A stretch of DNA of 64,000 bases, from positions 304-64,303 of the forward strand of contig DATDWZ010000008.1 of the NCBI GenBank assembly GCA_036517295.1, written 5' to 3'. Positions 1 through 39,699 of this stretch are shown in pieces. The notes beneath the pieces are model-generated. The model saw only the letters and a list, made by a program, of their open reading frames with translations, was not told where the DNA came from and made no database searches. Numbering within the stretch: position 1 is the stretch's first letter; each line of letters begins with the position of its first letter. The position numbers and the translations under genes are program-made. This stretch comes from Minisyncoccota bacterium (GTDB lineage Bacteria; Patescibacteriota; Minisyncoccia; Phycocordibacterales; DATDWN01).

Positions 1-240
1 GTTCGAACAATTCCTCGACCAGAGCCTTCGCGACCTCCGGAGTCCGCGCTTTAGAGCGCAGAGAATCTGTGAGCGACCGTTCTTCTTCAAGCAGCGTGCG
101 TTTACGGCTCTCGAAATCTTCCTTGTTGAGAGTGCCGTCAACGAACGCGTCGATGAGACGGGTCAACCGCATCTGTATCGCGCCGATTTGCGCTTGCAAA
201 TGTGACTTCCGCTCGTCCTCACTCGCGTCGTCCTGCCGCT
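1..240 (-). pseudogene. Fragment of a large serine recombinase coiled-coil region (partial, runs off window start)
   Basis: Minus-strand translation of 1..240 gives ...QRQDDASEDERKSHLQAQIGAIQMRLTRLIDAFVDGTLNKEDFESRKRTLLEEERSLTDSLRSKARTPEVAKALVEELFE. This heptad-like coiled coil is typical of the C-terminal part of large serine recombinases. Its N-terminal side would lie where the + strand fragment sits, so it is a remnant or rearranged. Confidence 0.35.
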
Positions 241-242
241 GA

Positions 243-730
243 ACGGAATACACCTGCCAGAAGTGTAAGAACAAGATTCCGGCCGCTGACCTCGAAACCG
301 TGTTCCGGGAACAGCTCAAGGAATTCTTCCTATCGTCCGAGGAGCTGACCAACTACCTCGAACAGGCCGACGAGAAGGTAGTGGAGAAGCGCGAACTCCT
401 GGGAACCCTGGAGACGGACCGAGCGACCGTCCAGGCCGAGATGGAGAAGGTCTACAAGCTCTACGTCTCGGACCAAATCAGCGCCGATGGGTTCGGCCGG
501 ACATACAAGCCGCTCGAAGAACGCCTCAAGGCGCTCGACGACCAGCTCCCCAGGCTCCAGGCCGAACTCGATTTCCTGCGCATCAAGAACCTCTCCCGTG
601 ACGAAATCGTAAGCGAGGCCCAGGACCTCTATGGCCGGTGGTCGGATCTCCTGCCGGAGGAGAAGCGCCAGATTATTGAGAACGTGGTCGACCGCATCAC
701 CATCGACCTTTCATACGTTCCCTCTCCCTC
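243..730 (+). pseudogene. C-terminal fragment of a large serine recombinase (zinc-ribbon CxxC plus coiled coil); N-terminus missing
   Basis: The frame opens right after an in-frame TGA at 240-242. It reads ..TCQKCKNKIPAADLETVFREQLKEFFLSSEELTNYLEQ...RLQAELDFLRIKNLSRDEIVSEAQDLYGRWSDLLPEEKRQIIENVVDRITID, the recombinase zinc-ribbon/coiled-coil tail. It is oriented head-to-head with the minus-strand fragment at 1..240. Confidence 0.45.
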
Positions 731-756
731 TGAAATAGCCACAAAAAGGCAACGCG

Positions 757-792
757 ACCACACCCCTGCGTTGCCTTTTTGTACGGCGACCA
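757..792 (+). terminator. Putative intrinsic terminator hairpin (aggcaacgc/gcgttgcct) followed by TTTTTGT
   Basis: 9-bp GC-rich inverted repeat with a 12-nt loop and a T-tract. It lies inside the six-frame ORF 300..1214, which argues that ORF is really two genes. Confidence 0.4.
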
Positions 793-1214
793 TGAGAACC
801 GAACGGAAGCCAGAGGGATATCCCAGTGTTCTCAATAACTTAGCGGACCATTTGAAGAAGAGAATCCTCGACCTCGGAACCAATCAGAAAGAGGCGGCGA
901 GGCAGATTGGCGTCGGGACCGGGAGCTTCACGCATTGGATGAGAAAACACCGCAACCCGACCATTCGTCGCTGGCCGAAGGTCATCCAGTTCCTTGGATA
1001 CGACCCACGGCAGGCGTCGGAGGGCATCGGACAGGGCCTCGTTCGATGGCGACAGGGCAGAGGGATGTCACAGAAGGAATTGGCGGCGCAGCTCGACGTT
1101 GACCCGACCACGCTGGCCAAGTGGGAGCGTGGTGAACGTTGTCCGTCGGGCGACCGCCAGATGCAATGCACCATGCTCCTGTGCAATCTAGGCTTTCCGC
1201 GATTGCATCTGTAA
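792..1214 (+). CDS. Tandem helix-turn-helix (XRE-like) DNA-binding protein
   Basis: Starts at ATG 792, after the hairpin. There are two XRE-like HTH motifs: KKRILDLGTNQKEAARQIGVGTGSFTHWMRK and RWRQGRGMSQKELAAQLDVDPTTLAKWERGE. High GC. Confidence 0.45.
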   Translation: MRTERKPEGYPSVLNNLADHLKKRILDLGTNQKEAARQIGVGTGSFTHWMRKHRNPTIRRWPKVIQFLGYDPRQASEGIGQGLVRWRQGRGMSQKELAAQLDVDPTTLAKWERGERCPSGDRQMQCTMLLCNLGFPRLHL

Positions 1215-1321
1215 GCAGTTGACAATAAAGGACTTAGGAGGTACTCTAGTATTAGAAATCGTCTCGTCGGTAGGAGGAAGCGTTCCTTTTTCGAACGTTT
1301 CCTCGCTGCCTAGGAGGCGAC

Positions 1322-1525
1322 ATGCAGGACAAAGCGCAAGACTGCCTTCGATTTGAAGAACTACTTCGGCGTCTGGAACTCACAGACGACGAGGTCGATT
1401 TCTGCCTCAACCATCCGGGGGCGTGCGCGATTGGCGTACACACCCGAGAGGCTCAGACTCGGACCAGAAACGCCTTGCTGAGGTGGGTCGAAAGTCTCGG
1501 TCAACGGAGAGAACGGACCACGTAA
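1322..1525 (+). CDS. Small hypothetical protein (67 aa) with strong SD
   Basis: AGGAGG sits 7 nt upstream of ATG 1322. A terminator hairpin with T-tract lies at 1549..1572. Confidence 0.45.
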   Translation: MQDKAQDCLRFEELLRRLELTDDEVDFCLNHPGACAIGVHTREAQTRTRNALLRWVESLGQRRERTT

Positions 1526-1548
1526 CTTGCCACCGGCAGGTCCTGAAA

Positions 1549-1572
1549 GCCACCATTGCGGTGGCTTTTTTG
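1549..1572 (+). terminator. Intrinsic terminator gccacc-ATTGC-ggtggc + TTTTTT
   Basis: Perfect 6-bp GC stem, 5-nt loop, U-tract. Confidence 0.55.
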
Positions 1573-1669
1573 TGCTCTCGCGTCCCTACATCTTGCCAAA
1601 TAGACGAGACTTACCGGCGGCAGCCAAAAAAGATTCCCACGCTCGTCCAGGCCGGCCGAATATCCTTCC

Positions 1670-2806
1670 GTGAACGCCGCGCACTGTGCCATGGATGAAC
1701 ACAGCGAGCCACAGTTCAGGGACCTTGAGGAAGTCTTCGCGACCGGCGAGGACCAGGCGGCTGAGATCGCCCTCGAAAAGCTGCTTGAAATCCATGGACA
1801 CCGCGTCCGCCATTTTCTTTACAACGTCACGGATGTGGATGGCGCACATGAAGAGATATACGGAGACGCTTACGCGCAGGCGATCGACGACACGACCACG
1901 AACCAAATCACCAAGAAGAGTACCGAGCTAACGAAGAAGGTCATCACAGACAAGCTCAGACGCAGCTTCCAGGACGAACTGGTCGGCCTGGAATTCACCC
2001 ACCTCGCGGTTGAGATCCAGGCAGCGGGCGGCGCGAAGGGTGCGCTCCTTCACAAGCTGGCTTTCAGTAATGCTCCTGGCGTCACCGTCACAGATGTTCT
2101 CAGCGAGGGCGAATCGCGGGCCCTGTCCCTTGCGGCGTTCTTGACCGAATTAAGCACGGCCCCGACAAAGGCCGGGATCATATTCGACGATCCTGTGTCC
2201 TCATTGGATCACGTCTGGCGGGAGCGGATTGCCAAACGACTCGTGGCGGAAGCGAAGGACCGCCAGGTCATCGTCTTCACGCACGACCTGTTTTTTCTTC
2301 GAAGTCTGCTCGCAACATGCGACAGAGAATCTGTTCCGCTTCAACATCAGTACGTTCGCCGCGATGGCCAGGCTGGCATCTGCTCACCTGACCTCCCGTG
2401 GGTCGCGATGAACGTGAAGAGCAGAATTGGCGTCCTCCGACAGCGCTGGCAGGCGGCCGACAAGCTCCAGAGAACCGTGGGAAACCAAGCGTACGAGCCT
2501 GCTGCCCGCGAAATATTTGGTCTGCTTCGCGAGGCCTGGGAGCGTGGCGTGACCGAAGTCCTGCTCAATGACGTCGTCGAGCGTTACCGCCCTGCAATTG
2601 AAACGAAGAAGGTCGCGATTCTGCACGACATCACGAATGCGGACTGCAAGGCAGTTGATGATGGGATGGCAGAGTGCTCGCGGTGGATGCGTGGACATGA
2701 CGAGTCGATGGCAGACGGGACGCCGTTTCCGACGCCGGCACAGCTTAAGACAAGGATCGACGAACTTGAGGGCTGGGCAAAGGGCATTCGAGCCAAACGG
2801 ACCTGA
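1670..2806 (+). pseudogene. 5'-truncated PrrC/RloC-like ABC-type ATPase with C-terminal HEPN-like domain (no Walker A)
   Basis: ABC signature LSEGESRAL, Walker B IIFDDPVSSLD (D-loop) and H-loop VIVFTHDLFF are present. There is no GxxxxGK[ST] anywhere in the 378 aa. The C-terminal domain contains SRWMRGH (an Rx4H HEPN-type motif). The fold assignment is an inference. Confidence 0.45.
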
Positions 2807-2925
2807 GTCGACGGGTGGCACTGGCCGCACATCAGGCTGCTTCGCCACGGCCTGCTAGGCCATGCCGTGGTCAGCTTGCCGTCGTGATGGCCGCGTGAAG
2901 ATTGTTCAGGCGTTCAAAGCCGCAT

Positions 2926-4074
2926 TTACTGCCAAGGCCACGCGCCTTTTGCGGCGAACCCGAGAAGCACAGCCGCGGCTCCCCAAAGTACCGCCCTGTT
3001 ATGGACAAGTCTCAGGCTCACGGGGTCGTGTGTGGCGCGCACTAGAATGGGCAACACTGCGCGGTCGACCACAAGTACCACAGCCATCACTAGAGTTCCG
3101 AATGGGATTAGGGTTACGTAAAGATTCGATTCCGCTGCTATCGAAAGTGGAGCAGCAAGGAACTCGACAACGCCCGAAGGTATGGGCAGCACACCATTCA
3201 TGGCGAGCATCAGGGGAATGCGCGGCAGGATGTTCAGGGCGACAAGTAGACCAAGACTTGAGACGATTAGGCCGAATGCTCGCCACCTGCTCGATCTCGA
3301 TGCTCGCGTGAGAATCCGTCGAAAGACAGCGATGACTGCGAAATCTGCAAGGGCTCCGATGAGCCAGCCAGGAAGAAGTGGAAGTAGGACCGCAGGCGAG
3401 GTTACGAAAACATACTTTGTGGTGCTCGTAGGCTGTGAGCCGACCTCGATAGTGAACCAGCCGCCGATGTGGACCGCGAATGGGGAAAACAACGGTGAGA
3501 ACGACGCAAATAGAGTCAAGCAGATTAAGAGAGCCAAGGTCAGATTCTGAAGCGCCCTGGCGATGATTAGCCAGAACCGTCTTGTGGCAAAGACAGTCAC
3601 AACAAACGTCGAGGCGAGTATCGCCCCGGCCGCGCTGAGGAAGAGCCCGGCGACCTTCGCTGATGCTCTGGTGATCTCGCTTTGCACTATGCCGCGCAGA
3701 AATTGAAGGGGCTCGCCGTCTGTGAAATCATCCGGCGACAATAAGAACGCAATAGCGTACAAACCAACACCTTCTGTGACGAGCACTGACGACAGTGACA
3801 GAAGGAGCGCGGCATTGAAGGCGCGTCGAGACCATATGGTTGGGCCATAGACCTTATTGAGGAGGAGCGTTCCTATCGAGGCAAAGCCACGCATCCAACC
3901 TAAGTGACGGTTCGTTGTTGTTGCGCGGACTTCGGCAAGTCGGAGCCACCAAGTCTCCAGCGAGCTTTGGAGGACGCCTCGTTCGTCTGGGAACATGAAT
4001 AGGGCGATGTAAATCAGCAATAAAGCTGCACATAGTGCGAGACCCCGAAGAACGACCTCGGCTACGAGCAGCAT
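2926..4074 (-). CDS. Polytopic integral membrane protein, function unknown
   Basis: 382 aa with about 10 hydrophobic segments. High GC. No recognisable motif. Confidence 0.55.
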   Translation of the reverse strand: MLLVAEVVLRGLALCAALLLIYIALFMFPDERGVLQSSLETWWLRLAEVRATTTNRHLGWMRGFASIGTLLLNKVYGPTIWSRRAFNAALLLSLSSVLVTEGVGLYAIAFLLSPDDFTDGEPLQFLRGIVQSEITRASAKVAGLFLSAAGAILASTFVVTVFATRRFWLIIARALQNLTLALLICLTLFASFSPLFSPFAVHIGGWFTIEVGSQPTSTTKYVFVTSPAVLLPLLPGWLIGALADFAVIAVFRRILTRASRSSRWRAFGLIVSSLGLLVALNILPRIPLMLAMNGVLPIPSGVVEFLAAPLSIAAESNLYVTLIPFGTLVMAVVLVVDRAVLPILVRATHDPVSLRLVHNRAVLWGAAAVLLGFAAKGAWPWQ

Positions 4075-4696
4075 GGCTTTATTTCAATGAAAGGAAAGTG
4101 CACGAGTCCGGCCCGACGCAGAGAATACATCAGTCGCCTCAGGCAATCAGACTTTCCACGCCGGGGCGCCAGTGGTGGGCGGCTCCGGGCAATGGAGTTA
4201 AGCACGAGCGCACCGGCGCATCTCGGTGCACTTCTCTCTTCGCCCATTCCCAGGGTTCTCTCGCGATGCGTTTGACTTCGTCGATGGAAAGATCAGACAC
4301 CGGTTGACTGGTGTTCATGATGGTGGTGGGTTAGCTGATATGCCGCCAGCAGCATCCTGAATCGTACCGCCAGACCGCGATCTGTCACCAATTCCTGGCC
4401 GCTGAAGCTCCTTCTTGGCCCAGTCGAGGAGAGCGCGAGCTTGTACGTTCAATTCCTCGGTGTCATACTGGACGGATGAATTGGTCGAATCGGTTCGAGC
4501 CCTGTCCTGAAGACGGTCACAATCTTACGGAGTAAAAAAGTCACGGGAGTTGAAGCCTGTTTGAGATATTTTTAGAGTGAAACGAATAAAAATATCCAAA
4601 CACGGGGACTGACCGAGTAGCGGTCAACTCCCGGTAAGGTCACAAAGAGAAACTTCGGCAGAAGTGAGCGAAAAAATGGGTATATTTTCTGATGCT

Positions 4697-7600
4697 TTAT
4701 GGCACAATCCGAACAGAGTCTTTGGCTTGGAATAAGGCTCCGCTCTTGGTCTTACCATTCAATACTCCAGCAGTATCCTGGGCCTGGAAATTACTGACCT
4801 TGGTTGAGAAGTGACAAATCAAATCTTTCCTTCCGTCATTATTAACATCTTCACCATTAGAATTGCAGAGACTTAGGGACTTTTCATCACCGACATGGCC
4901 GAAAGTAAGAGAAGAAAGATCAATTTGAGTTAGGGCGTTGAAATTAACCGAGGAAAGAATCGCTACAGGAATCTTGCCACTACTTTTTGGATTAATTGGA
5001 TTCGGAAAACTGCCGGGCTTGATGTCAATTTTTACGACAATATCTTCTGGCGGGGTTTCAACAGGTTCGGTAATGACGAATGGTGAAAGAGAATTAGCAA
5101 CTCCGCAAATTATTTTATTTACCTTATCTGGATAACCCGATTTGGTTATGTCCACCCAGCTCGTACCGTCAAAATGCCTTAATTTAAGATTATTTTCATT
5201 TTGATAATTTACTCCTGCATAACTAAAGCAGACTTCAACGGGTGGAGTGTAGATGGCGGTAGTACTGATATCATAATAAATTGCCGGATTCCCTAACTTA
5301 AACTGTGTCGGCAAAGCCGGTCCAGCCGAACTAGTAGTAACCGTCGTTATGCCACCAGTTAAAACATTTGAGAATGTCACATTTACATTTGAATCAAGAG
5401 CAACAGAAACACCAGCGCCTGTTTCAGTATAACCCGGCGGTAATGGAAGCACCTGAACTTGCTGAGTTGCTTGGGCCGAATTACCAGCTTGATCTTGCGC
5501 CATCCAAATAACCACAGTGATTCCGATTGGAAATATGGCTGGAGCATTATTTGTCACCGTTGGATTTGGATCAATGTTGTCCGAAACAACTGGGATCCCG
5601 AGAACAACACCACTGGCACCGGCTGAACTTGTAGCCGGTACAACTACATCTTGAGGAGCTATGATGGTTGGCGACTCCGTATCTGCTGGCGGAATATACG
5701 ATACCGTTACAGTAAATGAAGCATTTGCTATATTTCCAGCAGCATCACTAGCTGAACAATTAACCGTATTTTGACCAATTGGAAATGTAGAGCCGGATGC
5801 AGGACTGCAGGAAAAACTAATTACGCCAACATTATCCGTGGCCGAAGCGTCATAATTAACTATGACGCCCTCGGGCGAAACAGCTTCAACGGTGATTGGC
5901 GCTGGTACTGTAATCGTTGGGGCTATGGTGTCTGCCGGAACTGTCCCGCAACTTATGCCGTTTTGATAACGCTGCTCTATTTCGGATGATGTAAGAGCAC
6001 GATTATAGATTTCCACCTCGTCCAGCAGTCCTGGAAATGGCTGAATTTGGGTATCAAAATTACCCAGTGTAAAGTTTGAGTTGAACACGAAGCCGGGGTT
6101 ATAGGAAATAACGGGTGTTCCCCCGCGCTGTGCTCCGGCCGCTATGCCGTCAAGATAAAAAGTCACTGTACCGCCACTTTTGGTGACAGCCACATGGTGC
6201 CATCCTGTGTCATTTACAGAGAGAGGAGCAGCAACCATGTCGAAACCGGGTTTGTCCAAGCTGAGTTGCCGAACCGCGGTCGCCCCATTAGTATTCACGA
6301 CGCTTGGGCCAGACAAGAAGAATCCGTAACCGCCGATCCCATATCCCGCGATTCTTTCGGCAAAGCCGTCAATAGACAAAGTATTGAGTTTGATCCAGGC
6401 ATCAATGGTAAAATCCTGGAAGCGAAGATTGACTGGATTGCCGATAAGTACTTTATCATCCACACCATCAAAACTAAACGCCTGGCCAACTTGTCCTGAC
6501 GCAAATGTAGCGCCACCTTGTAATGTCCCATTATTTACGCCGACAGCATCATTTGCATTTCCCTCGCCGGACCACTCACTAACTATTCCGGACAATGGAA
6601 CAACGCATGCCCCTACCACTCTCGGCACCACAGCAATGCCGTGCGGGCTACTGCCAAAACTTGCCAAAACTGTCGCCACTCCTGTGGTTGGATTCAGTTT
6701 AATAACAGCCCCCGGCTCATTACACGGATCATCGACTAAGAGATTGCCGGAATTATCAAATGCTATTCCTGTCGGACAAACAAATGGACCACCCGAAGCA
6801 ATCACCGTTTGCGCTCCTGTTGTGGGATTGACTTTAATTACCTTACCAATATTGTCAGACACAAAAATATCACCGTTAGGAGCAACCACGACACCTACCG
6901 GATCAACAAAATTTCCACCCGACGAAACCACAGTCCAGGCACCGGTTGCGGGATTGACGCGGATTATTCCCCCAAGTTGTCCGAAACCACTTACATCGGC
7001 CACCAGAACATCCCCATTAGGAGCAACTGTTAGGTAATACGGTCCTGCATTTTGGTCTGTGCTAACATAGACCGGTGTTTGTACTCCTGTTATTGGATTA
7101 ACTTTAATAACTCCGCCATAATAATTGAAGGCGTCGCTATCGGCCACAAATATATCACCGTTGGCGGCTACTGCCACGCCACGGGGATCAACAAAATATT
7201 GTCCCTGTGAGACTACCGTTTGGACTCCATTTGTTGGATTTATTTTAAATACGGCTCCACCTAAACTAAATGCTTGAGGATCACCGACAATAAGATTTCC
7301 GTCTCCATCAATAGCAACTCCCATTGGTTCTTCAAGATCAGGACCTGAATAAACCGCTTTTTGATTTCCTAAAAAATCAAAATGATAAATACCGCCCTGA
7401 TCGGAGGGAGCACTCGGGTCAGCGATAAACATATCACCGGGGATTAATGGCGTGGTCTGAGGAGAAACACTTTCAATAACTAATTTAGGTCTTAATGAAG
7501 CTGTGCCATAATCTGAAGAAGCAATTGTGTTAAGCCAAACACCCCCATCCCAAGTAGATCCTAACCTAGTAAACCCGATTCCGTGGTTTGTAATCGTTCC

Positions 7601-8176: not shown

Positions 8177-8626
8177 ATTATGTTATTAATTATTTATTCT
8201 TATAAAGAAAGGGCCCTTCACTGGCATTCTACCTCTTGAATTAATAATGTCAACCCCGAACGGTGTACTAGTTTCTCGCGCAGAATACTGATTCCTAGTT
8301 CATCCGAAAGTGACGCACAGTCGCGCTTCGGTCGGAGCCTTCATCATCCAAGACGGCACCAAGACTTCTCTGTACCTCGACGTACGAGTGAACGCGTTCT
8401 AAACGACCCATCGCGCACGGCCGGCCCCAGCCATCACGTTCTAAAGACAATTCGCCACCACGGCGACGGAAGATCCGTCACTGGGGAGGCGGATTTTTTG
8501 TTATGCAAATTTATTTTCTGAAATAACTTTTATATACGAAGAACCGGCGATCATACGACCGCCGGCGAGGGTATGTCTCCCTCTACTCGATATCCGTCGA
8601 GACGGAGGGTCGTCCTAACGACCTAT

Positions 8627-14734: not shown

Positions 14735-15169
14735 TTAGAGGACTCCTACTTGACCAAGTTTCTCGGCCAAAGTATCCGCTTGCTTCTCCACAACCTTTTT
14801 GTATTCAATCCAGGCCTTCTCGTTCCAAATTTCCACACGACTGGAGACTCCTATCACCACCACCTTATTTTTTAGTCCCGCTCTATCGCGAAGAAACTCT
14901 GGAACGAGAATTCGACCAATCGAATCTATTTCCGCCTCAACCGCACTGGAAAACATTAGGCGATTGAAGCTTCGATTGTCCGCCTGGCCAATAGAAGACT
15001 GATTAAGTTTTTCTTCTATCTTCTTCCACTCCACGTGTTTGAAGATCCAGAGACAACTATCCAACCCTTGGGTCACTACTATTTTTTTCCCAAGTTCGGA
15101 ACGAAATTTCGCGGGAAGAGATAGTCTGTTTTTGTCATCTATTGAGTGTGTATACTCTCCGATTAACAT
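14735..15169 (-). CDS. mraZ: Transcriptional regulator MraZ
   Basis: Duplicated DxxxR-containing halves (SIDDKNRLSLPAKFR / IDSIGRILVPEFLR). Confidence 0.9.
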   Translation of the reverse strand: MLIGEYTHSIDDKNRLSLPAKFRSELGKKIVVTQGLDSCLWIFKHVEWKKIEEKLNQSSIGQADNRSFNRLMFSSAVEAEIDSIGRILVPEFLRDRAGLKNKVVVIGVSSRVEIWNEKAWIEYKKVVEKQADTLAEKLGQVGVL

Positions 15170-15289
15170 AAAAAGTGATGCTTATTTTCTCCTAAACCAA
15201 GACTTCGTCTTGGTCGGACGAACAATTTTTTCAAAATTGTTTTAGTCCCACTTCTTCCCACTTGATTCCTATTATATACCACTCTATCC

Positions 15290-15800
15290 CACTGTCTACC
15301 ATAGTTATCCCCCTCCTGTGGATAATTCAAGTATAGGAAAAGACCGAGAATTCTCGGCCTTTGAAAGATGGGAGGGTGGAGTTCTCCCCCGCATGGTACC
15401 TTGAGAAAACATACCAAGGCTCACACCACAGTGGTAAGACGGAACACACTGGTAACCCCGGTCAATCGCAGGGCTCCACCCTCCTACTGCGGAGAATAGC
15501 ATACTACATATAAAAATCAATTAATATAAGAAAGGGACCCGCCATTCGCCGAAGCGACTGCGGGCCCCAGTGGAAGGGCACTTCCTCTCTCTGTCTAGGC
15601 GGACCTGCAGATCCGCCACCCATCGCCCAGAAACTAAACTTCTGAGCGCAGGATTTCAACTGAGCCGTCTCTAACGCTGCACAGCGACCCGCTTTTCGAC
15701 GTCGCTTACGTCGTCACACCACGAATTCCCTGCTCTCGCGGCCCGTCCAGGCCCGCACGCTGGGGTGGCGATTGTGCGCTATGCAAACCGTTTTTATTAG
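15290..15800. ncRNA. GC-rich, highly structured non-coding island (candidate structured RNA; identity unresolved)
   Basis: ~55-60% GC within ~38% GC flanks. An 11-bp long-range pairing, gggagggtggag (15371) with ctccaccctcc (15470), encloses nested hairpins (ccttg...caagg; cagtg...cactg). Many further GC hairpins follow at 15530-15780. No convincing ORF. It lies between lysS and mraZ. Confidence 0.25.
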
Positions 15801-15916
15801 ACTGCCCGCTTCCGTTTGAAATTATAGCATAGTATATATTAGGTGTCAAGTATTTTTGGTATCCCAAAAAAGCCCTTATTTTAAGGACTTTTTAGAGTAA
15901 ACTAAAATAATCATGC

Positions 15917-17812
15917 TTATTTAAACAATTCCAATCCTTTGGTTAATTCATCCACTTCAGACTTTGGACCAAATATAAGGAGCCCAAGAAAATCAATGTC
16001 TTTTACATCCTTCGCTTTCGTCCATTCAACCACTTTGTTATCACTTGTTGTTTCTATCATCTCTTTTGTAAAGTGAGCAATTTCCAATCCCCTTTCTTGG
16101 GCCAAGTCCGATAGTCTCCAGATATCCTCCGAACTTCCGGCGGTCTTTATCATGATTGCGTGTCGGATATTCAATCTTATATTTTTATTGTCTTGAGTTT
16201 TTATGGAATCGAATTTAAAAAGATTATTTTTCGACCGTGCGCCAAAAGCCACACCGAGATGAGCGATGGTATTTGCAACCTTCCAGGGTTCCAGATTCAA
16301 CCCTTTATTTATTATGGCTGTCACGACCCAAGTCGCCTTATCTTTCTTTTTTATTTCCTCCAGAGGTCTCATCAGCGGGAAAGCTTGCAGTTCGCGAAGT
16401 GGTTTATCCGCCAGAAAAGCAAAGAGTCTCTCGCCGAAACCGAACCCACAGGTGGGAGGCATACCGTGTTCCAGCATTTCCACAAATTCATCATCCTGCA
16501 TCATGGCCTCCGTATCGCCGGCATCTATCAACCTCTGTTGAGCCTCAAATCTCTGTTTTTGATCAATCGGATCATTCAACTCGGAATAACCGTTCCCGAC
16601 TTCACTGCCGGCAATAATCGGCTGAAATCTTTGGGCGGTTTTTATATTATCCGGGTTCGCTTTTGACAGTGGTGCAACCAGAGTCGGATGGTTTATGAGA
16701 AAGGCCGGGCCGGAAATCTGCCTACGGCAATATTTCCATAAGGTATCCGTCAGCCTCTCCTTATTGTCTCCTTCATACTTTACACCGAGCTCATCCAATT
16801 TCTTTTTCATATCACCTTCGCTCGCGGTTAACAAATCAATGTTGGTCATTTCTTTCACTTTTGAAACATAGTCTATTTTTTTCCATTCATCGGCCAAATC
16901 GAAAGAGTGTCCGTGAGTGGTAAACTTTGTAGTACCAAAAACTTTTTTGGCAATCTCAATATACATTTCCCGCACCAATTCCATACCATCGTTATAATCG
17001 GCAAAGGACCAGTAAAATTCCATGTTCGTAAATTCTTGAGCGTGCTCGGGAGAAGTCCCCTCATTCCGATATGCCTTTCCTATCTCAAAAGTCTTTGGGA
17101 AGCCACCGGCCATAAGTCTCTTCTGCCACAATTCGCCTATCGATATGCGTAAATAAACATCGAGGTCATAATCGTTGTGGTGTGTTCTGAATGGAGTGGC
17201 CTCCGCGCCTCCAGTGGTGGTTTCAAGAGTCGGGGTCTCAACTTCGAGAAACCCTTTGCTCTTCATAAACTCCCGAGTTACATCCCAGAATTTGGATTTT
17301 TTTACTATCAAATCGCGTAACTCGCCGTTCATTAAAAAATCCAGGTATCGCTTTCTATACCTTTCATCAACATCCTGTAATCCGTGCCATTTTTCCGGTA
17401 ACGGCAGGATGGACTTACAGGCCATGACCCAAGAATTAACTATGATACTTTGTTCGCCTGTTTTAGAAACCGCAGGAACGCCGGTAATAGAAATAAAATC
17501 TCCAACATCGATGGTGTCCGTAAATAAAGAAAAATTATCGACCTTTATTTCATCCTTTTTTACAATAGCCTGAATCCTTTCCGTTCCATCAAAAAGCACG
17601 GCAAAAAGTATGGCCCCCTGGCCACGCAGAGCCATTACTCTTCCGGCTACAGAAACCGGTTTGCCCGATTTACTCCTTGTATCAAATTCGGATTTTAAAA
17701 TAGATATCGGAAAATCTCGTGGGACTTTTGCCGGATATGGGTTTATACCTTTACTTTTCAGTATTTCAAGCTTTTGTAATCGCGCTTGCCTTATTTCTTC
17801 TAGTGAGGCCAT
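15917..17812 (-). CDS. lysS: Lysine--tRNA ligase (class II) with ~140-aa C-terminal PTH2/DUF2000-like domain
   Basis: Class II LysRS core (anticodon-binding OB fold, then motifs through ...GMPPTCGFGFGERL). The C-terminal extension TWVVTAIINKGLNLEPWKVANTIAHLGVAFGA...LLIFGPKSEVDELTKGLELFK resembles the peptidyl-tRNA hydrolase PTH2 fold (VIVVRTDL...AQ..HA ... AIGP...VTG.LKLL). Confidence 0.85.
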   Translation of the reverse strand: MASLEEIRQARLQKLEILKSKGINPYPAKVPRDFPISILKSEFDTRSKSGKPVSVAGRVMALRGQGAILFAVLFDGTERIQAIVKKDEIKVDNFSLFTDTIDVGDFISITGVPAVSKTGEQSIIVNSWVMACKSILPLPEKWHGLQDVDERYRKRYLDFLMNGELRDLIVKKSKFWDVTREFMKSKGFLEVETPTLETTTGGAEATPFRTHHNDYDLDVYLRISIGELWQKRLMAGGFPKTFEIGKAYRNEGTSPEHAQEFTNMEFYWSFADYNDGMELVREMYIEIAKKVFGTTKFTTHGHSFDLADEWKKIDYVSKVKEMTNIDLLTASEGDMKKKLDELGVKYEGDNKERLTDTLWKYCRRQISGPAFLINHPTLVAPLSKANPDNIKTAQRFQPIIAGSEVGNGYSELNDPIDQKQRFEAQQRLIDAGDTEAMMQDDEFVEMLEHGMPPTCGFGFGERLFAFLADKPLRELQAFPLMRPLEEIKKKDKATWVVTAIINKGLNLEPWKVANTIAHLGVAFGARSKNNLFKFDSIKTQDNKNIRLNIRHAIMIKTAGSSEDIWRLSDLAQERGLEIAHFTKEMIETTSDNKVVEWTKAKDVKDIDFLGLLIFGPKSEVDELTKGLELFK

Positions 17813-24906: not shown

Positions 24907-25003
24907 CCCGTTAGAGTTTATGTTTATATATTCTAGCAAATAAAATAAATTTATCTGAATACTGTGACAACGGTGTCTCCGAAACGAGTAAGACTCTAAC
25001 GGG
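24907..25003 (-). repeat. Copy C of ~100-bp leader/MITE-like element (CCCGTTAGAGTTTA ... GACTCTAACGGG) abutting the proS start codon
   Basis: TIRs. Internal TAGAATATATAA. Ends exactly at ATG 24906. Confidence 0.55.
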
Positions 25004-25032
25004 ACAAGTCACTACATATTATAGCAAAAAAG

Positions 25033-25086
25033 AGAGAGGGTCAAAAAAACTCCTGGGCCGTAGGGCGCCAAGCTTTTGGCTTGGCT
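25033..25086 (-). terminator. Strong hairpin (ccgtaggagccaagc-caaaa-gcttggcgccctacgg) + U7 on minus strand; A7 on plus (bidirectional-capable)
   Basis: Long GC stem followed by TTTTTTT on the minus strand, 200 nt downstream of the rseP stop. Confidence 0.5.
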
Positions 25087-25279
25087 CCTACGGGGAGGAG
25101 TATCATCGCGCATGTCTTGTTTTGGTCGACACCTCAGCCTTCAGCCGAGGGACTGCGTCGAGGGGGATAAGAATGCCGATGGCTCTTGATCTAACCATGA
25201 TGGGCGACCATTCCCTCGGGCCGTCCAGTTAGATCTTGGAAAAATCGCTTTCGCTACTATACATTATGTCAACTTTTTG

Positions 25280-27854: not shown

Positions 27855-27905
27855 AAAACAAAACGGCGCACCTTGTAAGGGTGCGCCCGAGTGAAACCGG
27901 CGTTA

Positions 27906-28118
27906 GGGGGAAGAATAAGCCAGACGAAGCACCGGCATGGCCCACGACGGTGTTGGGACGATGTAGAGAATCATAACCACCGACCCAAAACTGAGGTAGT
28001 ACCGATTCTGGACCGGGTCATACCTCGCACCCTCTCTCACCAACGCCTGACCGGCCAGTTCTTCCGAAGCGAAGAGGCCGTTCGGCCTCCCGAAAAAATC
28101 AATGCTGTACATCCGCAC
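27906..28118 (-). CDS. Small GC-rich hypothetical protein (71 aa) with SD
   Basis: GGAGG 5 nt upstream of ATG. A terminator hairpin ggcgcacc-ttgtaa-gggtgcgcc + T-tract lies at 27866-27895 on the minus strand. About 55% GC versus an AT-rich genome. Only moderate support for coding. Confidence 0.3.
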
Positions 28119-28172
28119 CTCCGAGAATAATGATACTGTATTCTCTCCGAAATAGAATCTTCCCAGGAGGAA

Positions 28173-34597: not shown

Positions 34598-34915
34598 TCC
34601 GGTGTAGCTCAGTGGTAGAGCAATCGCCTGTACCGAAAGGTTGTGCAGCTTCCTAAAGTAATTTAGGATGAAAAATGAGGTGAATTCGGGGAACCCCACA
34701 GTTTAATAGCTGAGGGCAATCCCGAGCCAAGTCCCGAGAGAAATCGAGGGAAAGGTGTAGAGACTATCTCGTAAGAGAGTAGCCGTCACGCAAGTGAGTA
34801 GGCGAAGCGCCCCACATCCCACTCAGAAATGAAGGATGATGATATAGTCCAGACCAAAGGCAACTTTGGATAAAATGTAAGCGATTGGTCGTAGGTTCGA
34901 TCCCTACCGCCGGAG
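34598..34915 (+). tRNA. tRNA-Asn(GUU) interrupted by a group I intron in the anticodon loop (exons 34598-34631 and 34878-34915; CCA not encoded)
   Basis: Acceptor tccggtg/cgccgga (U1-A72, G73 as in Asn). D-arm gctc-agtggta-gagc. Anticodon stem atcgc/gcgat with loop CUGU|UAA after splicing. T-arm gtagg-ttcgatc-cctac. 5' exon ends in U; intron ends in G. Confidence 0.7.
34632..34877 (+). ncRNA. Group I intron (IC3-like, tRNA anticodon-loop type), ~246 nt
   Basis: Conserved core strings AAUCCCGAGCCAAGUCCCGAGAG (cf. AAUCCUGAGCCAAGCCGAAG), AAGGUGUAGAGACUA (P7; cf. GGUGUAGAGACUA) and UCGGGGAACCCC. Ends with omega-G. Confidence 0.7.
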
Positions 34916-36562
34916 CAATGGTCGTGAAAGAGGTATAATTTGCCTCTGTCGTGGCTTTACCAGGGACTTTTTTGAGGTTCGAAAATGATTTCGAGGCTCC
35001 GGAAGTTCCACAAATGGTTGAGAACTCGTTTTTAACAAGGAACCGCCAGCCGTAAGGGTTTTGGTGGTTTTTTGTGCTTGTTCGAAAGTTTTCTCTTGAT
35101 CTAGTCGTTGCTGTACTCTTTCCGCAAGTTTCTGAACTGGAGTTTTCATTGTCGGAGTTACTTCTTTATCTGTAAGTATTAAGTTCGAAAAGATATGACT
35201 CAAAAGTAATCTTCTGTCTTCGGGAGACCTTTTCTCGTATATCTCTCTTGCTCTCCTAGCAAGGTCAATTATATTCAACCAGATTTCAAAATACTTTGCT
35301 TCTTCAGTCTTAATCCTACCAAGTTGTTCTATCACAGCATTTTGCTCTTCTATTATTTCCTTATTTTTTATCTCCCAACGCTCTCTTGTAATTCTCTCAT
35401 CAAGACGGTCATCATATACGTTATCTAAACGTCTCTGTAGTGAGCTGTAGCGGTCGTTAAGCCCCTTGATAGCACTTTCCTTGTACTCTATCTCTTGGGC
35501 GTGGTTTTCCTTAATTTTAACCTTAATTTGCTCTGCCTCTTCTGGTGTTATGGTTTCAAAGAACTTAAAGACTCCAAAGAGTTTGTCTTCGAGTTCCTTT
35601 TCCGGTGCATACTTTTTCTGAGAGCAGTTTCGGTAATGATTGCAGTGATAATAGACTATTCCTTTCTGTATTTCTGCCGTAATAGTCCCACTACATTCTC
35701 CACAGATAAACATTTTTCTAAATTGAAACTCGTGGCGGTTAAAGTGAGGAGTCTTTTTACCCATTCTAATATCTCTAACCTTTTCAAATAACTCTTTGGT
35801 GATAAGGGGTTCGTGAGACCCATTACTAAAAACCTCATCATTCCATTCCATCGCTCCATAGTAAAAAGGATTATTAAGAATACTCTCAATAACACTTTTT
35901 ACCATCTTCTTACCAGATCGAGTCCGAAATCCCTCTTTGTAAAACATCTCAATCACGGCTTTCATAGAATAGTTACCAGAACCATAAAGTTCAAACATCC
36001 TTTTTACGAATGGAGCGATTTCTTGATCTATTATGTGTGTTTTATGTCCCTTCTCACCAATGGTTTTATATCCGAGTGGAGGTTTTGTTGGTAACCACCC
36101 TTGAGCAAGTTTTTCTTTCTGACCCTTTTTTACCTCTTCAGATAGATTTGAAATAAACTTCTTAGCTAGAACTATTTCAATATCCCAGCGAAACTTTTCG
36201 TCAGATTTAGCGTTCTTATGGATAATCAGATTTTGCTTAACAAAATGTATTTGCCTAGAAACATCTCCCTCAACCCAATCGTTAATCGCTAGTGCTTCCT
36301 TGAAGTTGCGAGTAAGTCTATCTACTTTCTCACAGAGTAATATATTTACTTTATTTTTTTCCAAAAACTCTAACATTTCTGCAAAAACCACTCGTTGTTT
36401 TGCACCACTTGCTGACTCTGCAATCGAAAAGACTTTTATCATCTGAAAATCTTTTCGCTGAGCATATTCCTCCATAAGTTTAACCTGTGATGGCAAAGAA
36501 TAACCTGTTTCTTCTTGTTCTTTTGATGAAACTCTACAATAACTAACTGCTTTTATTTTCAT
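34904..36562 (-). CDS. Large serine recombinase (resolvase catalytic domain + recombinase domain + zinc ribbon + coiled coil)
   Basis: YCRVSSKEQ catalytic Ser motif. Recombinase domain. CGECSG...YYHC zinc ribbon. Long coiled coil. The 3' end overlaps the tRNA-Asn 3' end. Confidence 0.85.
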   Translation of the reverse strand: MKIKAVSYCRVSSKEQEETGYSLPSQVKLMEEYAQRKDFQMIKVFSIAESASGAKQRVVFAEMLEFLEKNKVNILLCEKVDRLTRNFKEALAINDWVEGDVSRQIHFVKQNLIIHKNAKSDEKFRWDIEIVLAKKFISNLSEEVKKGQKEKLAQGWLPTKPPLGYKTIGEKGHKTHIIDQEIAPFVKRMFELYGSGNYSMKAVIEMFYKEGFRTRSGKKMVKSVIESILNNPFYYGAMEWNDEVFSNGSHEPLITKELFEKVRDIRMGKKTPHFNRHEFQFRKMFICGECSGTITAEIQKGIVYYHCNHYRNCSQKKYAPEKELEDKLFGVFKFFETITPEEAEQIKVKIKENHAQEIEYKESAIKGLNDRYSSLQRRLDNVYDDRLDERITRERWEIKNKEIIEEQNAVIEQLGRIKTEEAKYFEIWLNIIDLARRAREIYEKRSPEDRRLLLSHIFSNLILTDKEVTPTMKTPVQKLAERVQQRLDQEKTFEQAQKTTKTLTAGGSLLKTSSQPFVELPEPRNHFRTSKKSLVKPRQRQIIPLSRPLLRR

Positions 36563-36600
36563 ATATATATTTATATTATCACTTTTTAATAATCAGCTAC

Positions 36601-36770
36601 AGTCCGACTTCTACCTTCTGATACTATCAACAGGTAGTGGACTCTTATGTATCAGATAACTATGAGCGAGTTTTGTGATAACCTTTTCGTAAATTATTTT
36701 ACGTTTTATATATCCAACCCCGTTCTGAACTATTCCGATACTCTTCAGATGGCAGGGCGAGAAGTCGGAC
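36601..36770. repeat. Long-range inverted repeat agtccgacttct ... agaagtcggac(a) flanking ~150 nt immediately upstream of the recombinase gene (candidate att/recombination site or structured RNA)
   Basis: 11/12-bp inverted repeat at 36601-36612 and 36760-36770. Confidence 0.3.
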
Positions 36771-36818
36771 ACTCGTTTTCCCTGCTTTCGCAAGAGTACC
36801 TGAACACCCCTTATAGGA

Positions 36819-37091
36819 CTAAACGTCCTGTTTTAAAGAACAAGTTTTACCTGATGTCCTTATAGCAGGTTTGTTATCTAAATTGTCTTCCGTTTGCGAC
36901 ACGGGCTCTCTGGGGTTGGTCAAAGAGCTTGTGTCGATAACCGAATATTCGTTTTTCTTATCTTCGTAATCAAACCTTGATAACAAATCAAAGAAAGACG
37001 CCAACCCATTTATTTCTTCTCCGCTCAAAATTGAACTAACAGATTTTTCTGTATCAACTTCATTATTAAAGTTTTGAGATTTCACTGTCAT
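36819..37091 (-). CDS. Hypothetical acidic protein (90 aa)
   Basis: ORF only. Lies between the recombinase and the RM genes. Confidence 0.3.
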   Translation of the reverse strand: MTVKSQNFNNEVDTEKSVSSILSGEEINGLASFFDLLSRFDYEDKKNEYSVIDTSSLTNPREPVSQTEDNLDNKPAIRTSGKTCSLKQDV

Positions 37092-37099
37092 TTCAATTT

Positions 37100-37140
37100 T
37101 TGATAAACAAAAACACCACCCTTTTAGGTGGTTAATTTAC
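37100..37140 (-). terminator. Intrinsic terminator downstream of res (accacc-cttttag-ggtggt + U-tract on minus strand)
   Basis: Hairpin plus TTTTTGTTT on the minus strand. Confidence 0.5.
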
Positions 37141-37287
37141 GTACAGCAAAAGAGCCCCTTGATTGGGTAACTGTATCGGATTATTTAGTAGAGCGAAGTT
37201 TCCATCGGAAACTCACAGTAGCTTGATAACTTAATTATACCCTTTCACAACAGAATAGCAATCACATCTTATCCACTTATTCTATAC

Positions 37288-39699
37288 CTAGAACAAGTCC
37301 TCAAACGGTCTCCATTCCTTACTGTCATTTACTGACTGTCTTTCCCTAAAGGAATACTTCGGACTATCGTTGTAATACCAAAGTCCTGCTTCTTGTACCG
37401 CAATACCACCTACAAACTTTTTACCAAATTGCTTGAGCTTAGCTTGCAATGATTTTGCCTTATCAGCGGTATCTGTACTTGTTGCGGTATCTCCTTTCTT
37501 CGTATCAAAAATACCTATACGACCATCAGAGAAGCGAATAATCCAGTCAGGATAAAACAGGTTTTCTTCTTTTGTTGATGAGTTTGTATATTTAATGCCT
37601 AGATAGTTTTTTCCTTGATCGCCGTTTTTGAACCACCAATCAATCTTCCCTTTTTTCTTTTCCAAGTACTCGACAAAAGCAATTTCATTTTTGCGTCCAT
37701 TATAATCTTCTAATAAGTAGAACTTGTCTAATACACATAACTTTTGAGGGACAACCTTATAATCTTCAGGATACCGATATTCTTCTTGTATAGTAAAAGT
37801 ATATGCTTGCTGTTCTTCTATCTTCTTTTTCTTGTCAGTGAGTAAACTATCTGAAATTGGTTTGTAAGCTCTAAGTGCCTTTGTTATTGCCGGACGAAAC
37901 TTACTTTCAGTACCTTTACGAATATCTTTAATAAATATCTTGTACCAAAAAATATGGTCATCAAGTAAAACTGTCTTAAACCAAACACGAAGTGCTTGTT
38001 TTAACACTGACCAAGAACGAGCTATGTTAGAGTATCTAGCTTTGTCGTCTTCTTGTTCTTTCAAGATTTGGTAACAAAGATAGTTGAATGTTTTTTCAAC
38101 ATCACTCACTGACATTTCAAGAGAAACATCACTACCTTTCTTTTTGAAATCAAAAGCAAGGTTATCGTAGTCCTCAAAACGAGCATTGGCTATAACTTCA
38201 TTTACTAAAGTATTACTAAGATCCAGCCCTGCCTTTTTTAATTTTATCTCTGATTTACCTAAAATATCTTTCTCACTAATACCAAAATGCTTGTTTAATT
38301 CTATTCTAAAAACTTTTTGGAACTCTGAAGATACACGAATATCTCCGTAATCTAAGCGAGAAATATAATCAGAAGGCAACTCTATATTACTTATTCCTTT
38401 TTTTATATGTGCAGTTTCTGTAAGAGCTTTATTCGCAGGGTTTTGATCTGGTATTACTACTTCCTTACGCTTATAGTTTGTATATAGATAACCCAATCGG
38501 AGGTTAGGATTATTTTTGTAATCTTCTTTTGCTTGAGGTTCAGGCATTCGCAAAATACGCCCAACAGTTTGAGTATAAAAAGTATTTGATTGTATCTCTC
38601 TAAACATCACAAGTACCGATGCACGAGGACAGTCCCAACCATTACCAGCAGTTTGTTTGAAGATCAGAAAATCGTGTTCATCGTCATTTTCTTCTAGCCC
38701 CTTCGGTTTATCTTGTCCCTTAGACCATTTTGCAATTTTATGTTCAGGTACTTTCATTCTAACAAGATAATCTGTAACAATTTTTTCCTTTGTCTGTTCG
38801 CCTTTTTCTATTAACTTACTGTCGTCATTCGGTATTTGTATTAACATTAAAGGATTTATTTCTTTCCCGAGTGCCTTAAGTTCAGCTTTTAATTCTTCTC
38901 TTTTATTTATTCCATTTTCAAGAAGAACTCTATCAAGGTCTTTACCGGACATACCCTTAAAATCTTCATCTGTTTGAGTAACAATAGCTTCTTTTATTAA
39001 ACCTTGATCAACCACTTCTTTTCTTGGGACTTCATAATAACTACCAAGACGGCGAGCATCCAGTTCGTCATCTCGGTTTGGTGTAGCTGTAATGTGAAGA
39101 ATTACCTTAGGATCAATCATCTCGATAATATCCTTTGCGAGCCTCGTGTCTTTGTTTTTATGGGCTTCATCAATAACTAAAATAATCTGCCTGCCATCAG
39201 CGTGTGTTTGCTCAATTACATCCTCAAAGTATTTACCCGTTTCTTTTATCCACTCTTCATCTTCAGGACGGCGAAGTAATCTTGTTTCTGCACTTTTAGC
39301 AGTAACTTTTTGCCAATTCAAAAACAAAATATCATTTTGATATAGTTTGCCTTGATTTATATCTGCAACAGTCAAAGCTCTGTTTTCAAGCATATTTTCA
39401 AAATACTCAAGAAACTTACCTTTACTTTGCATAGCCAAATCATCACTGAAAGTAATCCAAATAAATGCCTTGTCTTCTTTCCATTGTGGTAAATGATTAA
39501 GGCCACGAATAAAGAGTGAGGTCATAAAGGTTTTACCGCTACCAGTTGGCGATTTGAAAACAATAGGTAATTGTCTGCCTTGTTGTTTCCATATCGCTAC
39601 AAACATATCTGTAAGATTTTCTACAGCAGTTTTTTGGAATTGTAATGGATTAAATGTTTTCATATTAAATAATATTGTATATTTGCTTGTATACCTCAA
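37288..39699 (-). CDS. res: Type III restriction enzyme Res subunit (SF2 helicase + C-terminal PD-(D/E)xK endonuclease)
   Basis: KSPTGSGKTF (motif I), LVIDEAHKN (DEAH), ITATPN (motif III). C-terminal PDWIIRF...IGIFDTKKG nuclease motif. Confidence 0.85.
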   Translation of the reverse strand: MRYTSKYTILFNMKTFNPLQFQKTAVENLTDMFVAIWKQQGRQLPIVFKSPTGSGKTFMTSLFIRGLNHLPQWKEDKAFIWITFSDDLAMQSKGKFLEYFENMLENRALTVADINQGKLYQNDILFLNWQKVTAKSAETRLLRRPEDEEWIKETGKYFEDVIEQTHADGRQIILVIDEAHKNKDTRLAKDIIEMIDPKVILHITATPNRDDELDARRLGSYYEVPRKEVVDQGLIKEAIVTQTDEDFKGMSGKDLDRVLLENGINKREELKAELKALGKEINPLMLIQIPNDDSKLIEKGEQTKEKIVTDYLVRMKVPEHKIAKWSKGQDKPKGLEENDDEHDFLIFKQTAGNGWDCPRASVLVMFREIQSNTFYTQTVGRILRMPEPQAKEDYKNNPNLRLGYLYTNYKRKEVVIPDQNPANKALTETAHIKKGISNIELPSDYISRLDYGDIRVSSEFQKVFRIELNKHFGISEKDILGKSEIKLKKAGLDLSNTLVNEVIANARFEDYDNLAFDFKKKGSDVSLEMSVSDVEKTFNYLCYQILKEQEDDKARYSNIARSWSVLKQALRVWFKTVLLDDHIFWYKIFIKDIRKGTESKFRPAITKALRAYKPISDSLLTDKKKKIEEQQAYTFTIQEEYRYPEDYKVVPQKLCVLDKFYLLEDYNGRKNEIAFVEYLEKKKGKIDWWFKNGDQGKNYLGIKYTNSSTKEENLFYPDWIIRFSDGRIGIFDTKKGDTATSTDTADKAKSLQAKLKQFGKKFVGGIAVQEAGLWYYNDSPKYSFRERQSVNDSKEWRPFEDLF

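Follow-up and report, generated by a model that had tools for sequence, protein, structure and literature searches.

Two candidate tandem small RNA genes in the lysS–mraZ spacer of a Paceibacteria genome

Results

Two predicted transcription units on the minus strand

The spacer between lysS and mraZ in a 64,000-nt stretch of a Minisyncoccota bacterium genome (contig DATDWZ010000008.1; this whole stretch is called the window below) probably holds two independent small RNA (sRNA) genes, which we named RNA1 and RNA2. They lie in tandem on the minus strand and would encode structured, trans-acting RNAs of undescribed families. The relatives of the window LysS place the host in the Paceibacteria/Parcubacteria, a lineage of the Candidate Phyla Radiation (CPR), near 'Zambryskibacteria'; the closest LysS proteins are only 79–83% identical to that of the window. 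The initial annotation had described this region as a single, large, structured RNA of about 500 nt, possibly of a new kind. Its description as structured and non-coding holds, and the region is also conserved; the single RNA is replaced by two units on the minus strand. We count two genes rather than one because a terminator and a second promoter separate them, and because each was found alone elsewhere (RNA1 at locus L107, RNA2 at loci L015 and L111).

The gap between lysS (15917–17812, minus strand) and mraZ (14735–15169, minus strand) spans positions 15170–15916, and all the genes around it are on the minus strand, with mraZ followed by rsmH, an ftsL-like gene, and a penicillin-binding protein gene. 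The GC content is 0.49–0.62 over 15300–15800, compared with 0.27–0.45 in the flanks and 0.42 for the whole window. As the initial annotation had proposed, this GC-rich stretch (15330–15815) is free of open reading frames (ORFs), and no frame is open across the homologues. No ORF of at least 110 codons was found in the spacer, and the sole one of at least 80 codons is an 84-codon TTG frame (15163–15417) that overlaps the start of mraZ. Folding was better than that of shuffled sequences, but only moderately. The z-scores for the region as a whole were −3.1 for the minus strand and −2.6 for the plus strand, and they were −3.0 for RNA1, −3.5 for RNA2, and −5.8 and −6.8 for the RNA2 homologues.

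Each unit displays, by prediction, what is generally expected of a stand-alone sRNA gene, namely a dedicated promoter and an intrinsic terminator, with no conserved ORF. Conserved structure with compensatory substitutions was also found, in three to four sequences, which is short of R-scape grade. No reading frame counted from the homologous 5′ ends is stop-free in all the homologues, and indel lengths are not divisible by three. There is no second copy of RNA1 or RNA2 in the window, nor in any of 115 loci.

RNA1 and its homologues

The RNA1 transcription unit is predicted to run from about 15813 to 15528 on the minus strand (about 285 nt), and comprises a 245-nt core followed by a terminator. 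Its promoter (15821–15849, minus strand), detected by a promoter scan, consists of TTGACA, a 17-nt spacer, and TGcTATAAT. This 12/12 match with an extended −10 is the only 12/12 sigma-70 promoter in the window, and the transcript is predicted to start at 15813 with GGAAGCGGG.

Relatives were collected as 80 lysS loci from GTDB species representatives, plus 27 loci obtained by exact-protein look-up. Using nhmmer, RNA1 homologues were detected in three other Paceibacteria genomes with E values of 1e-17 to 1e-62 (L107, 4203–4421; L106, 2506–2737; L007, 7754–7965), all of them downstream of lysS; another locus, L083, is from the same organism as L007. Pairwise identities range from 54 to 74% over aligned columns, and the orthologous promoter, CTTGACTT..GTATGCTATACT, is kept in all three genomes.

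The core (15569–15813, minus strand) was delimited from these homologues, their alignment, and their folds. From its 5′ end, it contains GGAAGCGGGCAGUCUAAU, a long branched domain (domain A), AGAGACGGCUCAGUUGAAAUCC, two hairpins, UAGACAGAGAGAGGAAG, and a GGAAG/CUUCC hairpin. The segments AGAGACGGCUCAGUUGAAAUCC (15651–15672) and UAGACAGAGAGAGGAAG (15581–15597) are invariant. In the alignment, three invariant blocks are delineated: the 5′ GGAAGYGRGCAGUCURAU, the internal CAGAGACGGCUCAGUUGAARUCC, and UAGACAGAGAGAGGAAGU..CUUCC. Between the blocks, domain A and the two hairpins keep their pairing while their sequence changes. The unit ends in an intrinsic terminator recognized from its fold, GGGGCCCGCAGUCGCUUCGGCGAAUGGCGGGUCCC then UUUCUUAUAUU (15528–15568, minus strand). 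An equivalent hairpin and U-run ends RNA1 in L107, where RNA1 stands alone and the mraZ promoter follows at once; RNA1 is therefore a self-contained gene. In L106 and L007, RNA1 is separated from a terminator by additional structured modules.

The RNA1 helices were defined by per-sequence folding, as MAFFT and RNAalifold aligned the variable domains poorly. For the helices of domain A and of one of the two folds described below (fold A), 92.7% of the cells of the MAFFT alignment are paired, compared with 35–48% in slid controls, and four pairs changed on both sides. The covariation score was reached by 0 of 500 shuffles. Helix P3 carries four double compensatory changes between the window and L107/L106, and hairpin P6, different in sequence in all four genomes, always pairs. 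The initial annotation had listed a degraded high-GC pseudogene lacking conservation in relatives as the outcome that would undo its proposal; since compensatory changes are seen in homologues, the region is not a decayed pseudogene.

The 5′ end of RNA1, GGAAGYGRGCAGUCUR, can enter two mutually exclusive pairings in all four homologues. In fold A, it pairs with AGACGGCUC (GRGC-A-GUCU/AGAC-G-GCUC), and the GGAAG/CUUCC hairpin forms locally. In fold B, GUCUR pairs with UAGAC and GGAAGYGRGCA with UGCYC(AC)UUCC at the 3′ end, such that the whole RNA is closed; this fold bulges out a 12-nt purine run, AGAGAGAGGAAG, and frees the AGACGGCUCAGUUGAA block. Position 8 of fold B is a G-C pair in the window and L107 and an A-U pair in L106 and L007, and the first 11 nt of the L007 RNA are perfectly complementary to UGCUCACUUCC. 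The predicted energies of the two folds are 0.4–5.8 kcal/mol apart in all four homologues. These two conserved and nearly isoenergetic pairings make it probable that RNA1 is a two-state RNA.

RNA2 and the reported helix

The initial annotation had singled out an 11-bp perfect long-range helix. This helix is real; its arms (15371–15381 and 15474–15484) are 100% complementary and 92 nt apart. About 0.035 perfect inverted repeats of 11 nt are expected in the spacer and about 3 in the window, where about 20 distinct loci (50 overlapping 11-mer pairs) were seen; the repeat alone is therefore unremarkable and proves little. It extends, however, to 17 pairs with a 5-nt bulge and is kept, with compensatory changes, in two other genomes. 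The helix closes the 114-nt rod that forms the RNA2 core (15371–15484, minus strand), which was defined from the inverted repeat, the homologues, and their alignment.

The RNA2 transcription unit, which follows RNA1, is predicted to extend from about 15486 to 15336 on the minus strand (about 150 nt). A promoter-like site was read at 15493–15520 (minus strand), with TTGATT at 15520–15515, a 16-nt spacer, and TGcTATTCT (−10 at 15498–15493), which gives a predicted start at about 15486. It shares GTATGCTAT with the RNA1-type promoters. The predicted intrinsic terminator (15335–15368, minus strand), GGCCGAGAAUUCUCGGUC then UUUUCCUAU (UUUUCC), was recognized from its inverted repeat and fold and is unlisted by the scan tool.

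Two RNA2 homologues were found, in L015 (3663–3763) and L111 (3485–3584), with identities of 62–89%. Both loci carry RNA2 alone, each with its own TTGACT promoter and an equivalent terminator. The rod starts with P1, GGAGGGUGGAG/CUCCACCCUCC, which has the 5-nt GAGAA bulge, followed by P2, CCCUGC/GCGGGG, an internal loop (AUUG on one side and A(A/C)CA on the other), ACC/GGU, and a variable apical domain. The internal loop and the flanking ACC/GGU are invariant, and the apex differs between the window and L015/L111. Counted as P1 (11 bp), P2 (7 bp), and ACC/GGU plus 2 bp, the rod has 23 of 23 pairs paired in the three sequences (slid controls, 41–58%). Four pairs changed on both sides (three from G-C to A-U and one from G-U to U-G) and six on one side. 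The presence of several G-U pairs makes the structure minus-strand-specific; a covariance model built for RNA2 gave 88–110 bits on the forward strand versus 23–28 bits on the reverse.

No further members were found with this model among 32 sources. The RNAs of L026/L030, L113, and L114, which occupy the same spacer, are therefore not detectable relatives of RNA2, even though their closing stems are similarly G-rich and the string GACCGG is shared.

Turnover of the spacer among relatives

On the contigs looked up for relatives of LysS and MraZ, most spacers are empty or carry unrelated RNAs. Among relatives, the distance from the lysS terminator to the DnaA box or mraZ promoter varies from 26 nt to more than 900 nt. 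There is no RNA in the spacers of L002, L010, L105, L109, and L112, while those of L018 and L074 contain small membrane-protein ORFs. Unrelated GC-rich RNAs behind strong promoters were seen elsewhere: one is shared by L026 and L030, another by L009 and L108, and more are present in L022, L099–L101, L113, and L114.

Close relatives may differ. L113 and L107 have LysS proteins that are 96.5% identical and DNA that is 89.9% identical over 2.8 kb, yet the homology stops 9 nt past the RNA start (GGAAGKG), after which L113 has an unrelated RNA. Likewise, L109 lacks RNA2 although its LysS is 95% identical to that of L015. Compared with L107, the window has an extra cassette of about 175–230 nt (promoter, RNA2, and terminator) between the RNA1 terminator and the DnaA box. 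Most RNAs of the locus start with GGARRG and, where the 3′ end is visible, a CYYUCC strand closes them. At least the 5′ part of these RNAs is inherited with the promoter region.

The other promoter-driven RNAs of the spacer that we leave unclassified are at 7668–7754 in L026, 7531–7604 in L030, 4545–4959 in L009 (with one in L108), 2840–2952 in L106, 3975–4150 in L099, 2805–2932 in L113, and 3485–3660 in L114. The L026 and L030 RNAs have ACAGACCGGCUAACGCUGAUCAU in common, and L009 and L106 share a 111-nt 3′ module with 89% identity. The L114 RNA has a 17-bp closing stem, GUGGAGGUGGUGGGCGG/CCGCCACCUCCUCCAC, with a 3′ strand containing CACCUCCU, which we take to match the anti-Shine-Dalgarno sequence at the 3′ end of the 16S rRNA.

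Two loci, L090 (1–101) and L094 (1–478), were compared with the window from 15293 onward; they encode the same MraZ protein, and their DNA is about 98.5% identical. The sequence preceding their mraZ promoter holds a 98-aa gene on the opposite strand and neither lysS nor the RNAs; this different neighbour therefore indicates a strain-level rearrangement exactly at this junction. Several contigs from the same strain break inside the RNA region.

The mraZ control region and the lysS side

The mraZ promoter, found by promoter scan and repeat analysis outside the two RNAs, consists of TAGACA, a 16-nt spacer, and TATAAT (15298–15271). It lies among AGTGGGA/AGTGG repeats (15237–15300, minus strand) that are spaced by about 10–31 nt and resemble MraZ operator boxes. 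No other piece of the spacer is as widely conserved as this block, which nhmmer matched in 26 loci. Just upstream of the −35 element, a pair of DnaA boxes (15303–15326) combines a perfect copy, TTATCCACA (15317–15325, minus strand), with a degenerate inverted copy, GTTATCCCC (15303–15312, plus strand). The former is the only perfect DnaA box in the window. In most related lysS–mraZ loci, one perfect box occupies the equivalent position with its orientation unchanged; in L114, both boxes of the inverted pair are perfect. The pair marks the right-hand edge of the variable RNA spacer. These observations suggest that DnaA may feed into the transcription of the dcw operon in these CPR bacteria.

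On the other side of the spacer, a putative intrinsic lysS terminator, AAAAAGUCCUUAAAAUAAGGGCUUUUUU, was read from the sequence at 15862–15895 (minus strand). In L107 and L113, lysS is followed by the same hairpin, and the weak, chance-level Rfam matches at this site are driven only by the hairpin and the U-run. A conserved AT-rich element of about 130–190 nt with internal inverted repeats directly follows the lysS stop codon in several relatives (L007, 7450–7640; L107, 3950–4080; L009, 4230–4420; also L019, L022, and L113). It is absent from the window and had no Rfam match. The window lysyl-tRNA synthetase (15917–17812, minus strand) ends in a C-terminal DUF2000 (PF09391) domain of about 145 aa. 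This fusion was seen in only some relatives, and the closest ones by catalytic core do not have it.

Searches for known RNA families

No Rfam family matched the region at the gathering score (whole window), and a short, permissive search covering both strands of 15100–15950 gave nothing at E ≤ 10 either. The RNA1 homologue of L107 also had no match at E ≤ 10, and 18 related loci had none save four tRNAs well away from the lysS–mraZ spacer. ARAGORN reported no tRNA or transfer-messenger RNA (tmRNA) on either strand of the window. Comparisons by blastn with phage and plasmid collections gave no match to RNA1 or RNA2, and exact-pattern scans of viral contigs with one RNA1 block or a block of the L026/L030 RNA gave 0 matches. 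A metagenome scan, which covered only the exact RNA1 19-mer GACGGCTCAGTTGAAATCC, returned eight matches: seven were chance occurrences in coding sequence, and one was the L007 organism. Look-ups in the literature on CPR small RNAs yielded nothing relevant, and consulting the 2017 paper by Weinberg on LOOT or CPR motifs was equally fruitless.

The initial annotation had suggested a reduced RNase P RNA or a tmRNA variant and had named the signal recognition particle (SRP) and 6S RNAs among the families to scan; the results above speak against all four. The RNase P-like strings that it cited were read on the plus strand, which is the non-functional one, and lack statistical support. In RNase P RNA, the long-range P4 helix joins the conserved regions CR-I (GAGGAAAGUCC) and CR-V (ACAGAAnnnGGCUUA). 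The window segments that we take to resemble these loosely, judging by the Escherichia coli M1 sequence, are GGAAGUGGGC and AGACGGCUCA. Instead of a pseudoknot, GGAAGYGRGC and AGACGGCUCA make up, together with GUCU/AGAC, an uninterrupted helix closing a single hairpin domain. With no covariance match to RNaseP_bact_a or RNaseP_bact_b, no P4 pseudoknot, and the functional strand opposite, this family was set aside; a circularly permuted RNase P RNA was too, as the pairing fails.

The other candidates were rejected in turn. For tmRNA, with its tRNA-like domain and tag frame, and for SRP (4.5S) and 6S RNA, the searches were negative. In addition, the apical half of RNA2, where SRP domain IV would lie, is its variable part; the RNA2 rod of 100–114 nt has an internal loop of only 4–5 nt, and RNA1 is branched, neither of which suits a 6S RNA, a rod of about 150–200 nt whose large central bubble mimics an open promoter. 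CsrB-like GGA decoys were dismissed since the GGA motifs lie in stems. A mimic of the Shine-Dalgarno/anti-Shine-Dalgarno pairing (GAGAGGAAGUG with CACCUCC-like 3′ strands) was considered as a suggestive possibility and dropped.

Other elements of the window

Only two Rfam matches were found in the window. The first is a group I intron (34630–34870, plus strand, 75.6 bits), which is intergenic, between hpf and a large serine recombinase gene, and outside any rRNA or tRNA match; a type III restriction-modification pair follows. Together with 34904–41350, this stretch looks like an integrated element. The second is a LOOT RNA (42138–42257, plus strand, 72.9 bits), located upstream of a trypsin-like peptidase gene and preceded by a promoter, TTGGCA-16-TGaTATAAT, from 42089.

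More GC-rich, ORF-poor gaps without an Rfam match are present at 24940–25279 (minus strand), 27855–28172 (minus strand), 8177–8626, 4075–4696, and 1226–1669. The gap at 24940–25279, upstream of a class II aminoacyl-tRNA synthetase gene, has an 11/12 promoter at 25283 and a hairpin with a U-run near 25045. That at 27855–28172 ends in a terminator, GGGCGCACC..GGUGCGCC plus Us, and may start with GGAGGUGCGG. The genome may thus encode several more unclassified sRNAs. The left end of the window (1–4700) is GC-rich and encodes a helix-turn-helix protein and an AbiEii-like AAA protein. Within it, a 132-nt stretch (4515–4646) is 81% identical to L026 12455–12583, which adjoins a tRNA gene in L026; this stretch may be the tRNA-fragment attachment site of an island.

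Discussion

The arrangement, strand, conservation, and structure of the two genes follow from the comparisons above; as for function, we infer it from sequence features. The consensus promoter of RNA1 suggests abundant RNAs, and a protein or another RNA may specifically recognize the invariant unpaired blocks. Both RNAs would be stable, abundant, and trans-acting, and would work through invariant unpaired segments able to bind a protein or to pair with another RNA. In RNA1, these segments would be AGUUGAAR and the purine run UAGACAGAGAGAGGAAG; in RNA2, the AUUG/AMCA internal loop set in a long rod. Because their distribution is patchy, accessory and fast-evolving regulators are more plausible than essential housekeeping RNAs. 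The lysS–mraZ spacer itself is a hotspot, in which a conserved promoter would drive different RNA bodies in different lineages.

Several points weigh against two trans-acting sRNA genes of new families. The gene calls are predictions from sequence, and the comparison includes no more than four RNA1 and three RNA2 sequences, some of them closely related, so that the covariation statistics are weak. The RNA2 promoter of the window is weak (8/12 plus TG) and falls under the promoter-scan threshold. On the structural side, the RNA1 homologue of L107 has a folding z-score of only −1.1, helix P1 of fold A is almost invariant and thus without covariation proof, and fold B relies on a single covarying pair, with 87 of 500 shuffles doing as well. 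As the 19-mer gave one true extra contig, that of the L007 organism, either the family is rare or the sampling is poor. As for partners, the two invariant RNA1 blocks have no complementary site in the window beyond the blocks themselves, no gene for an RNA-associated protein lies nearby, and no partner protein was recognized among the 30 window proteins scanned, none of which has a Ro, RtcB, reverse transcriptase, Cas, or IscB/TnpB domain.

The same observations can be read in other ways. Since the region is directly upstream of mraZ and on the same strand, since RNA1 has two conserved alternative pairings, and since a terminator follows each unit, the promoter at 15849 could instead drive a long leader of mraZ and the dcw operon, with terminators acting as sites of regulated read-through and the RNA1 folds as a riboswitch-like sensor. 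We regard such a cis-acting leader or attenuator as improbable, as mraZ retains a conserved promoter of its own and the alternative helices miss the terminator. That promoter, with its MraZ-like boxes and DnaA box, lies between the RNAs and mraZ and is conserved in relatives without the RNAs, and neither of the predicted RNA1 helices overlaps the terminator stem; on these grounds, the riboswitch candidate was also rejected. Moreover, what comes after RNA1 depends on the genome (RNA2, other modules, or the mraZ promoter), and RNA2 has its own promoter in L015 and L111. We give still less credence to the view that the region is non-functional, that is, a decayed GC-rich pseudogene, what is left of a mobile element, or insertions, selfish or neutral, that fold by chance. 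The patchy distribution, the rapid turnover of the spacer among close relatives, and the other GC-rich, ORF-poor patches of the window, some of them in apparent islands, would all agree with it. Against this stand the promoter and terminator, which are kept with the RNA body across genomes whose LysS are only about 79% identical, the compensatory substitutions in stems, and the invariant blocks of 17–22 nt within diverged sequence. Nor do the lack of a conserved frame, the lack of extra copies, and the lack of similarity to phage or plasmid records or to viral contigs fit such an origin.

A divergent housekeeping RNA (RNase P, tmRNA, SRP, or 6S) that standard models miss in the CPR is, in our judgment, very improbable. 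A promoter of consensus strength is typical of such RNAs, the strings presumed to resemble CR-I and CR-V could be taken in its favour, and RNA2 is rod-like, as are 6S and 4.5S. However, neither the permissive Rfam searches nor ARAGORN returned any of them, the would-be P4 strands are a simple continuous helix closing a hairpin domain, and the RNA2 apex, where SRP domain IV motifs should be, is variable. In addition, close relatives have unrelated RNAs in the same spacer, unlike what is expected of an essential RNA, in a comparison limited to this spacer. A bolder version of the sRNA interpretation treats the locus as an RNA cassette, in which a conserved strong promoter and a GGAAG start are joined to interchangeable bodies, exchanged even between strains with 96.5% identical LysS, the GGARRG/CYYUCC stem serves a common, Y-RNA-like partner, and RNA1 is a two-state switch of a new class. 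We hold it to be a tentative and rather unlikely extension; inheritance together with the promoter may be all that explains the common 5′ GGAAG.

To our knowledge, CPR bacteria (Patescibacteria) combine tiny genomes with few known regulators, and hardly any small RNAs have been described in them. At this locus, different RNAs are found in related organisms that occur together in groundwater. If expressed, RNA1 and RNA2 would mean that this lineage invests in lineage-specific RNA genes with a quick turnover, and would constitute two concrete new RNA families, one of them with an apparent two-state fold. It is also of practical importance that this GC-rich region should not be annotated as RNase P RNA or tmRNA.

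Comparison with known systems

Like RNase P RNA, the region is GC-rich and multi-helical, extends over a few hundred nucleotides, and contains short invariant purine-rich segments. It differs from RNase P RNA in that motifs CR-I to CR-V, a P4 pseudoknot, and a model match are all missing, in its patchy distribution, and in its strand, which is opposite. RNA2 recalls the 6S and 4.5S RNAs as a rod of about 100–115 nt that is closed by its 5′ and 3′ ends and that has a conserved internal loop, its own promoter, and a terminator. It has neither the large central bubble of 6S RNA nor the domain IV features of SRP RNA (the GNAR tetraloop and conserved loops).

With Y RNAs, the RNAs of this locus share a variable internal module and a terminal stem in which the 5′ end pairs with the 3′ end, mostly GGARRG...CYYUCC. 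They differ in that no Ro/TROVE or RtcB protein was recognized among the 30 larger window proteins scanned, and in having neither a tRNA-like module nor an Rfam Y_RNA match. Like a riboswitch expression platform, the 5′ segment of RNA1 has two exclusive partners in all four homologues, at near-equal predicted energy. Unlike a riboswitch, RNA1 has no recognizable ligand-binding aptamer, and its alternative helices are clear of the terminator; a separate promoter serves the gene downstream.

The LOOT motif RNA (RF03000), an example of the orphan structured sRNAs that stand out as GC-rich islands between AT-rich sequences, is an instructive parallel. RNA1 and RNA2 do not match it in sequence or structure, and they are known from three to four genomes of one Paceibacteria clade. 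In both cases, however, a stand-alone, GC-rich, structured RNA with compensatory changes in its helices is found in an AT-rich spacer of a small genome, behind a near-consensus promoter, which is 11/12 plus TG for the LOOT RNA at 42089 and 12/12 plus TG for RNA1.

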